A stretch of 64,000 nt of DNA from Candidatus Komeilibacteria bacterium S5_K13 (GCA_019248485.1 JAEHGL010000002.1:1324-65323), one strand, 5' to 3'. Counted from the stretch's first letter, positions 10,152-53,019 are shown. The notes: generated by a model not told the origin, from the sequence alone. Translations and numbers: made by a program.

Positions 10152-11753
10152 TTATTTTTTTATGTATGCAAGCGTATTTGAATCTTCGTAGAGCATTGTC
10201 CACTCACTAGAGCCTTTTATATAATCTATAACAACATTTTCTTTGTTGTTTAGTTTTGCCTCATTAATTTTTAGTATATTTTTTTCAAACCAGTCTAGTC
10301 TGGTATCTGTTTTTTTGTTAAAAACTATCATATTGATTTTATATTCAGATAGTTTGTTATAAACACTGCTTTTATCAAAAAAATTATAGTATTCCTCTAG
10401 AATAGTTTTGTCTTTGAATTCGTATTGAGGTAGGCGCCCATCAATAAAAAGTCTCATATCAGGATGATTGTATATGAAATATCCTCCCCATGTATAATAA
10501 TTAAATATTTTGTATTTTTTGTATTGAGGGTTGATGTCTAAAAATTTTGAAAATTCACAAGGGTAATAATTACAATAATTACTAAAAGGATTGCTGGTCG
10601 GTTTTATAAAAGTAATGATATATATAGAAAATACTAACATTAAAAAAATAGCAACAATTTTCAAAAACTCTATTTTTATGTATTTATAATAATTTCCAAA
10701 TAATTCGTCTACAAAGATAGTCAAAAAGAAAAATGAACTAATAAATAAAAGTGGCATATGCCTAAGAGATGATAGGCTCAGATATATAAATATGATAGTG
10801 ATTAATAATTGCCAATAATAAATATTTTTGACATGCTTTTGTTTGATTGATATTTTTTCAAATATAAGTATGAAAATTATTACTACTATTACGAGTGCTA
10901 TATAAAATAATTTTGGATATTGAAGTGGTATAAAAGCAAGTGGAGATAGCCATTCTTGAATATGAAATTTGTAAAACGAGTCTCTGTAGTCATATAGGAA
11001 TTTATATAAATTAAGCCCATAAGGGGTTATTAATGTTGCCAAAAAAGAAAGAAGCGCGGTAATGCCCAATAATTTTATGTGTTTTAATTCAAATATTTTT
11101 ATATCTCGTTTCAGTGATTTTCTATTTAGTAAGAAAAAGATGATGTCTATAAGTAGTTTAAAAAATAATACAAAAAGTCCTATAAGAAATCCAGCGTGCA
11201 TACAGGCCCAAACAAAAAATAAGATTATAGTAAATATTGTTGTGGACATTTTTTGTTCTGACTTGAGCTTATCTAGAAGAATAAAAAGTATTATAAGAAA
11301 TAAGAATGTGATTTCTTGCATTCTTACTCCAAAACTAGAAAGACATGCAAAGAGCCCCAAGATTTGTATTAAGCCTATGAAAATATCAGATTGCAAATTA
11401 TTAATATATTTTTTCTTTGCATGAAGATTAAGTAGGATCATTCCTAAGAGTGGAACAAGTGCAAAAATTATACTAAGAGTAATATATCCAAAATTTTGGA
11501 ATATGGAATATGTAATGAGATTTAGTAGCCATTCATGATCAACCCAATTTTGATCTTTAAGTGTCCACATGTATGTTTGTGATGTTGGGACATGATTGTT
11601 TTGAAGTATTTCTTCCCCCACTCTTAGATGCCAGCCTAAGTCAGGATCAAGATATGAAAAAGAGTTTTTTAGCAGGACTAAGAATATTAAAATATAAAAA
11701 ACTAGCCAAAAGGCATAGGTGATTATTTTTTTATAGTTTAATTTTTTTATCAT
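10152..11753 (-). CDS. polytopic membrane protein, possible GT-C-fold glycosyltransferase
   Basis: 533 aa, >10 TM helices, a first extracytoplasmic loop with acidic residues (WVDHEW) and a ~140-aa C-terminal soluble domain. Confidence 0.4.
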   Translation of the reverse strand: MIKKLNYKKIITYAFWLVFYILIFLVLLKNSFSYLDPDLGWHLRVGEEILQNNHVPTSQTYMWTLKDQNWVDHEWLLNLITYSIFQNFGYITLSIIFALVPLLGMILLNLHAKKKYINNLQSDIFIGLIQILGLFACLSSFGVRMQEITFLFLIILFILLDKLKSEQKMSTTIFTIILFFVWACMHAGFLIGLFVLFFKLLIDIIFFLLNRKSLKRDIKIFELKHIKLLGITALLSFLATLITPYGLNLYKFLYDYRDSFYKFHIQEWLSPLAFIPLQYPKLFYIALVIVVIIFILIFEKISIKQKHVKNIYYWQLLITIIFIYLSLSSLRHMPLLFISSFFFLTIFVDELFGNYYKYIKIEFLKIVAIFLMLVFSIYIITFIKPTSNPFSNYCNYYPCEFSKFLDINPQYKKYKIFNYYTWGGYFIYNHPDMRLFIDGRLPQYEFKDKTILEEYYNFFDKSSVYNKLSEYKINMIVFNKKTDTRLDWFEKNILKINEAKLNNKENVVIDYIKGSSEWTMLYEDSNTLAYIKK

Positions 11754-11810: not shown

Positions 11811-11840
11811 CAAAAAACAGGCATCTGATTCAGATGCCTG
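11811..11840 (-). terminator. intrinsic terminator (hairpin plus U-run on the minus strand)
   Basis: caggcatctga-ttc-agatgcctg perfect 10-bp stem followed on the minus strand by UUUUUU. Confidence 0.6.
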
Positions 11841-12296
11841 CACTATTTTTAAAAGTTATTATAACGATCGGCGAAAGTGTTAGTCTGATACTACCGATAT
11901 TGTATCAGATTACGAGGTTACATTGGTTGTAGTGCTATAGCTTTCTATCGAGCTTCTAGCTGGTAACCTCGTTGAGTAAGTAAATGATTTTCATTTCCTT
12001 CTCCGTTTTACTTGGCCTATTAAAGCCTGCCAACGTCCTTATGAACTTTAAAAAAGTTCGTTTGAAAAAGTTGTTAGTTCTCTCTCAGGGGAGAATCCCT
12101 AGACACTCGTCAGAGTTCTTGGCGCCTCATTACCCTACCTCAGAGTGTCTATTTTAGTAGGATGAGGCGATGTAGGTCGTCTTGGTACTGCCGACGTGGA
12201 CAAATCTGTTAATAAACAGATACGGATGGCGTCAGGGCTTGTACCAGGAAGAATACGCAGTAATACCATGTTTCCTCCCCGTTATAGATTACGCAT
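11818..12296 (-). ncRNA. GC-rich pseudoknotted structured RNA candidate, family not recognised
   Basis: ~480-nt ORF-free island, ~45% GC against ~30% background, bounded by a canonical minus-strand promoter and the terminator at 11811-11840. Nested pseudoknot-forming stems: tagacactc/gagtgtcta, gcgcctcat/atgaggcg, cctac/gtagg, tctgatac/gtatcaga with atcgg/ccgat. The plus-strand N-terminal extension of ORF 12196 is judged spurious. Confidence 0.45.
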
Positions 12297-12302
12297 ATGG
12301 CA

Positions 12303-12332
12303 ATTATATTATAAGTGTCGTTATTTTGTCAA
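12303..12332 (-). promoter_or_regulatory. sigma70-type promoter TTGACA-N18-TATAAT reading leftwards
   Basis: Reverse complement of 12327-12332 is TTGACA and of 12303-12308 is TATAAT, with an 18-nt spacer; predicted TSS near 12296. Confidence 0.5.
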
Positions 12333-51969: not shown

Positions 51970-53019
51970 ATGAAAGCTCAAATATTGAGCAGAAAGGACA
52001 AGGTGTTTGCGCGTGTTTCCGTGGATGAATTGCTGGTTTATTTAGCGAGCAATTATGACCCGGATAAGGTAATGGAAATTGCAGAGTCTTGTGGTTTTGA
52101 TTTGGATAGCGCCCTAGCAACTTGGAGTTTCTCAAGACATTTTCATGAGCATGGCAAGGATCATTTTGAAGAAAGACTCATCCACTGGAGGGGCATTTAT
52201 TATAAGCACAATGAGCTTAGGTATAAATGTCCAAGCAAGATGGAATACAAGGGTTTTCTTAAGAAGCTTATTTTAAGTGGTTACAGCTATCAATTCACAG
52301 CAATTAAGAGCATTGAGATTCTGGAGAAGTTTGCTGGTGGAAGACTTTTGATAAGTGGATCAGAAAACGTCGTGTCATCTAGTGATGCTTCTTTTCTGGA
52401 TTATATAAAAAGTGGTGAGTGTTACAAAGAAGAGTTGACGGTATATTTTGAAAATATTCCAGAACTTTTTTTCTCATTTAGTTTTTACGATGAAGAGGGT
52501 GAGCGTAAAGCATTTGTGTGCTGTATTCATTGTTCTTCTCGTAATGCCGATTTTGAGAAGAATACGTATGTTTATACAAGAGGAGGAATTCGTAAATATT
52601 ATAATGTACCAGAATATTTCAATAACAGATTTATGCAATTTATGTCGCGGGGACTGCTTATTGGATTTTTTAGCTCGGAATCAACGCTTACTAATTGTTT
52701 GTGTGAATATTTACAATCAAGAAATGTTCTTTTGCCGAATTTACATTATACAAGCAATATGTCACCATATGAAATGAAAACCGAAATTGAGAAAATGATG
52801 GAAGAGTCTTCCATGGATATCGAAAGTCTCAATTCTCTTGTAAGAAGAGTAACAAAGATGGAAACAAAGAGAGGTGTTTTACCTCAGCATCTTACGTTTC
52901 TCATTCTTTATTTGAGAGACTTTGTTTTAAGAAGAAAGGCCCTTCTTAGTAAGTGGTCTAAAGAGAAAAATCTGAAGGCACTTCAAGAAGAATATGAAAA
53001 AACCTTAAAACCACAATAA
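51970..53019 (+). CDS. hypothetical protein
   Basis: 349 aa; strong SD AAGGGAGG. Confidence 0.45.
   Translation: MKAQILSRKDKVFARVSVDELLVYLASNYDPDKVMEIAESCGFDLDSALATWSFSRHFHEHGKDHFEERLIHWRGIYYKHNELRYKCPSKMEYKGFLKKLILSGYSYQFTAIKSIEILEKFAGGRLLISGSENVVSSSDASFLDYIKSGECYKEELTVYFENIPELFFSFSFYDEEGERKAFVCCIHCSSRNADFEKNTYVYTRGGIRKYYNVPEYFNNRFMQFMSRGLLIGFFSSESTLTNCLCEYLQSRNVLLPNLHYTSNMSPYEMKTEIEKMMEESSMDIESLNSLVRRVTKMETKRGVLPQHLTFLILYLRDFVLRRKALLSKWSKEKNLKALQEEYEKTLKPQ

Follow-up and report, generated by a model that had tools for sequence, protein, structure and literature searches.

Between uvrD and a membrane protein gene, the window analysed here (the whole stretch of 64,000 nucleotides from Candidatus Komeilibacteria bacterium S5_K13) carries a minus-strand island of ~485 nt bracketed by a promoter at 12332-12303 and a strong intrinsic terminator at 11841-11812. 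The GC content between 12000 and 12299 is 0.455-0.465, compared with roughly 0.25-0.33 in the flanking genes. The promoter is of the sigma-70 type (TTGACA at 12332-12327, an 18-nt spacer and TATAAT at 12308-12303; consensus score 12/12), would place the transcription start near 12297, and is conserved in two diverged lineages, L003 and L005, the latter with TTGACC and a 17-nt spacer. The terminator (11811-11841) consists of an 11-bp stem (11841-11817; about -17 kcal/mol) followed by a U6 T-run, and is kept in both lineages with a single G-U change in L005. The original prediction of a GC-rich (~45%) pseudoknotted island with its own promoter and terminator thus holds, including both pseudoknots, as does the placement of the membrane gene start (ATG at 11753) 58 nt beyond the T-run.

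The minus-strand minimum free energy (MFE) of the island is -151 kcal/mol (z = -7.8 versus shuffles), and perfect 8-mer inverted repeats within 80 nt number 10, compared with 0.67 +/- 1.0 in dinucleotide shuffles (at least 10 in 0 of 1000). When the proposed stems were examined for covariation in relatives, conservation extended across three diverged lineages (the window, L003 and L005). The curated helices comprise 83 base pairs with 98.4% of cells paired, a figure biased in favour of pairing by curation with all three sequences in view; 12 of the 83 pairs show compensatory changes and 7 one-sided changes, versus 37-46% pairing and 0-2 compensatory pairs in a slid-partner control. The helices are maintained by compensatory changes, and 15 G-U cells compatible with the minus strand only assign the RNA to that strand. 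From 5' to 3', hairpin H2 and a long arm lead into an H-type pseudoknot core, after which come three small hairpins, then H9/H10 and a pseudoknot on the 3' side; this architecture is conserved.

In the MFE fold, the RNA is closed by helix H1, in which UAUAACG (12280-12286) pairs with CGUUAUA (11866-11860); it has 6-7 bp in the window and L003 but shrinks to ~4 A-U pairs in L005 (counted partly by eye) and is thus weakly supported. Hairpin H2 (12246-12279), invariant in the three lineages, pairs GGGAGGAA (12279-12272) with UUCUUCCU (12253-12246). The long arm (12184-12245) stacks H3 (GGUAC/GUACC), H4 (12238-12230 with 12196-12190; compensatory changes in 5 of 7 pairs) and a variable apical hairpin, H5 (12221-12204). 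The core (12099-12179), almost invariant over ~80 nt, begins with single-stranded CGACCUACA (12179-12171) and continues into pseudoknot A, whose helices were checked base by base: S1 (cgcctcat/atgaggcg, 12169-12162 with 12130-12123), S2 (cctac/gtagg, 12161-12157 with 12138-12134) and S3 (tagacactc/gagtgtcta, 12151-12143 with 12108-12100). With its 5' arm within S1 and its 3' arm outside, S3 makes this an H-type pseudoknot. Only 8 of the 81 core positions vary, whereas synonymous third positions among the same lineages are only 65-71% identical, and one-sided G-U changes are the sole substitutions within the core stems. Downstream (12014-12095) lie hairpins H6 (12095-12091 with 12082-12078; three compensatory pairs), H7 (12059-12054 with 12048-12043; one compensatory pair) and H8 (12027-12014), which is a hairpin in every lineage with a different sequence in each; the strain-level variation is one substitution, in L142, turning an H6 U-A pair into U-G. 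They are followed by hairpin H9 (11974-12003) and H10 (11912-11972), in which ACGAGGUUAC (11972-11963) pairs with GUAACCUCGU (11921-11912) around a variable insert, an A-U pair being replaced by G-C in L005. Pseudoknot B (11867-11911) combines hairpin H11 (tctgatac/gtatcaga, 11911-11902 with 11891-11882) with a loop-tail pairing (AUCGG 11898-11894 with CCGAU 11871-11867), both showing compensatory A-U to G-C changes.

The island had been described as ORF-free, which is incorrect: it holds an ATG-initiated ORF of 44 codons and another of 12, each with a Shine-Dalgarno (SD) sequence of the kind that genes of this genome use. ORF1 (12269-12135, minus strand) starts at GGGAGGAAAC-AUG and ends with a UAG lying within the GUAGG strand of S2. 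Its start and stop are identical in the three lineages (135, 129 and 129 nt; 42 codons in both L003 and L005), and its ribosome-binding site (RBS), GGGAGGAAA(C/A)AUG, matches in form and 4-5-nt spacing those of bona fide window genes, such as GGGAGGAAAA-ATG at 51970. ORF2 (11994-11956) encodes MKIIYLLNEVTS, with MKFIYLLNEVTFS in L003 and MKFIYLLNEVDFR in L005 (12-13 codons), and its SD lies 6-7 nt upstream of the AUG in all three. Length changes inside the frames are all multiples of three (-3, -6 and -3 nt in ORF1; +3 nt in ORF2), as opposed to only 2 of ~15 outside them (roughly P = 0.01 by hand calculation, for a pattern of 4-5 indel events spotted after the fact). To judge from these features, both frames look translatable and are probably translated. 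Nearly as likely as the reading we favour, set out below, is a pure non-coding RNA. Of the 26 ORF1 codons that can be aligned, 6 differ in their third base and 6 in the first or second, the amino acid exchanges are radical (R/I/T, S/L/P), and the central part of the peptide is unrelated from one lineage to the next; on this sequence comparison, the substitution pattern is not protein-like. Stretches such as ATT CTT CCT GGT ACA show zero synonymous change, so selection there acts on nucleotides. The peptides have no match in Pfam, NCBIfam, PHROG or PADLOC, and the L003 copy is the sole similar protein among 1.84 billion representatives.

The RNA matches no known family: as anticipated, Rfam returned nothing for any copy, even at E<=10. 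Its exclusion as tmRNA (ARAGORN finds none), RNase P RNA or SRP RNA also stands, and the likeness of GGGGAGGAAAC to the RNase P P4 5' strand is superficial, this segment forming a local helix with UUCUUCCU in each of the three lineages. The RNA occurs in three diverged lineages of one narrow clade of Patescibacteria (candidate phyla radiation) and is absent from the next relatives, L134 and L137; among GTDB species representatives it turned up in a single species, and searches of JGI metagenomes, IMG/VR, phages and plasmids yielded no copy. Sister lineage L141, in which just 37 nt separate uvrD from the membrane gene, has lost it cleanly. It is a real, accessory and dispensable novelty of this clade; its confinement and dispensability, like the two SD-led frames with conserved reading, go beyond the original prediction. 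A terminator-controlled leader of the downstream membrane gene, the alternative initially offered, is not supported, given the short gap in L141, the short, AT-rich, RNA-less upstream regions of orthologues elsewhere in Patescibacteria, and a search for a conserved antiterminator that found none. The narrow distribution and the absence from L141 likewise argue against a housekeeping RNA.

Our best reading, held tentatively and at a little under an even chance, is that of a self-contained accessory unit producing a discrete minus-strand transcript of ~485 nt, a structured RNA with two functions whose fold controls translation. The 5' arm of H2 is the ORF1 SD, its 3' arm corresponds to codons 6-8 and its loop contains the AUG, while H9 hides the GGAG SD and AUG of ORF2. 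Each RBS would thus be buried in a hairpin formed with the frame's own first codons, such that folding would gate translation. Because the ORF1 stop lies inside S2, a ribosome on this frame would have to open the long arm as well as the 5' strand of each of the three pseudoknot A helices, making ORF1 translation and the RNA fold mutually exclusive states. Such an RNA, structured and putatively translated, resembles in kind the dual-function small RNAs and the type I toxin mRNAs, which are likewise tightly folded.

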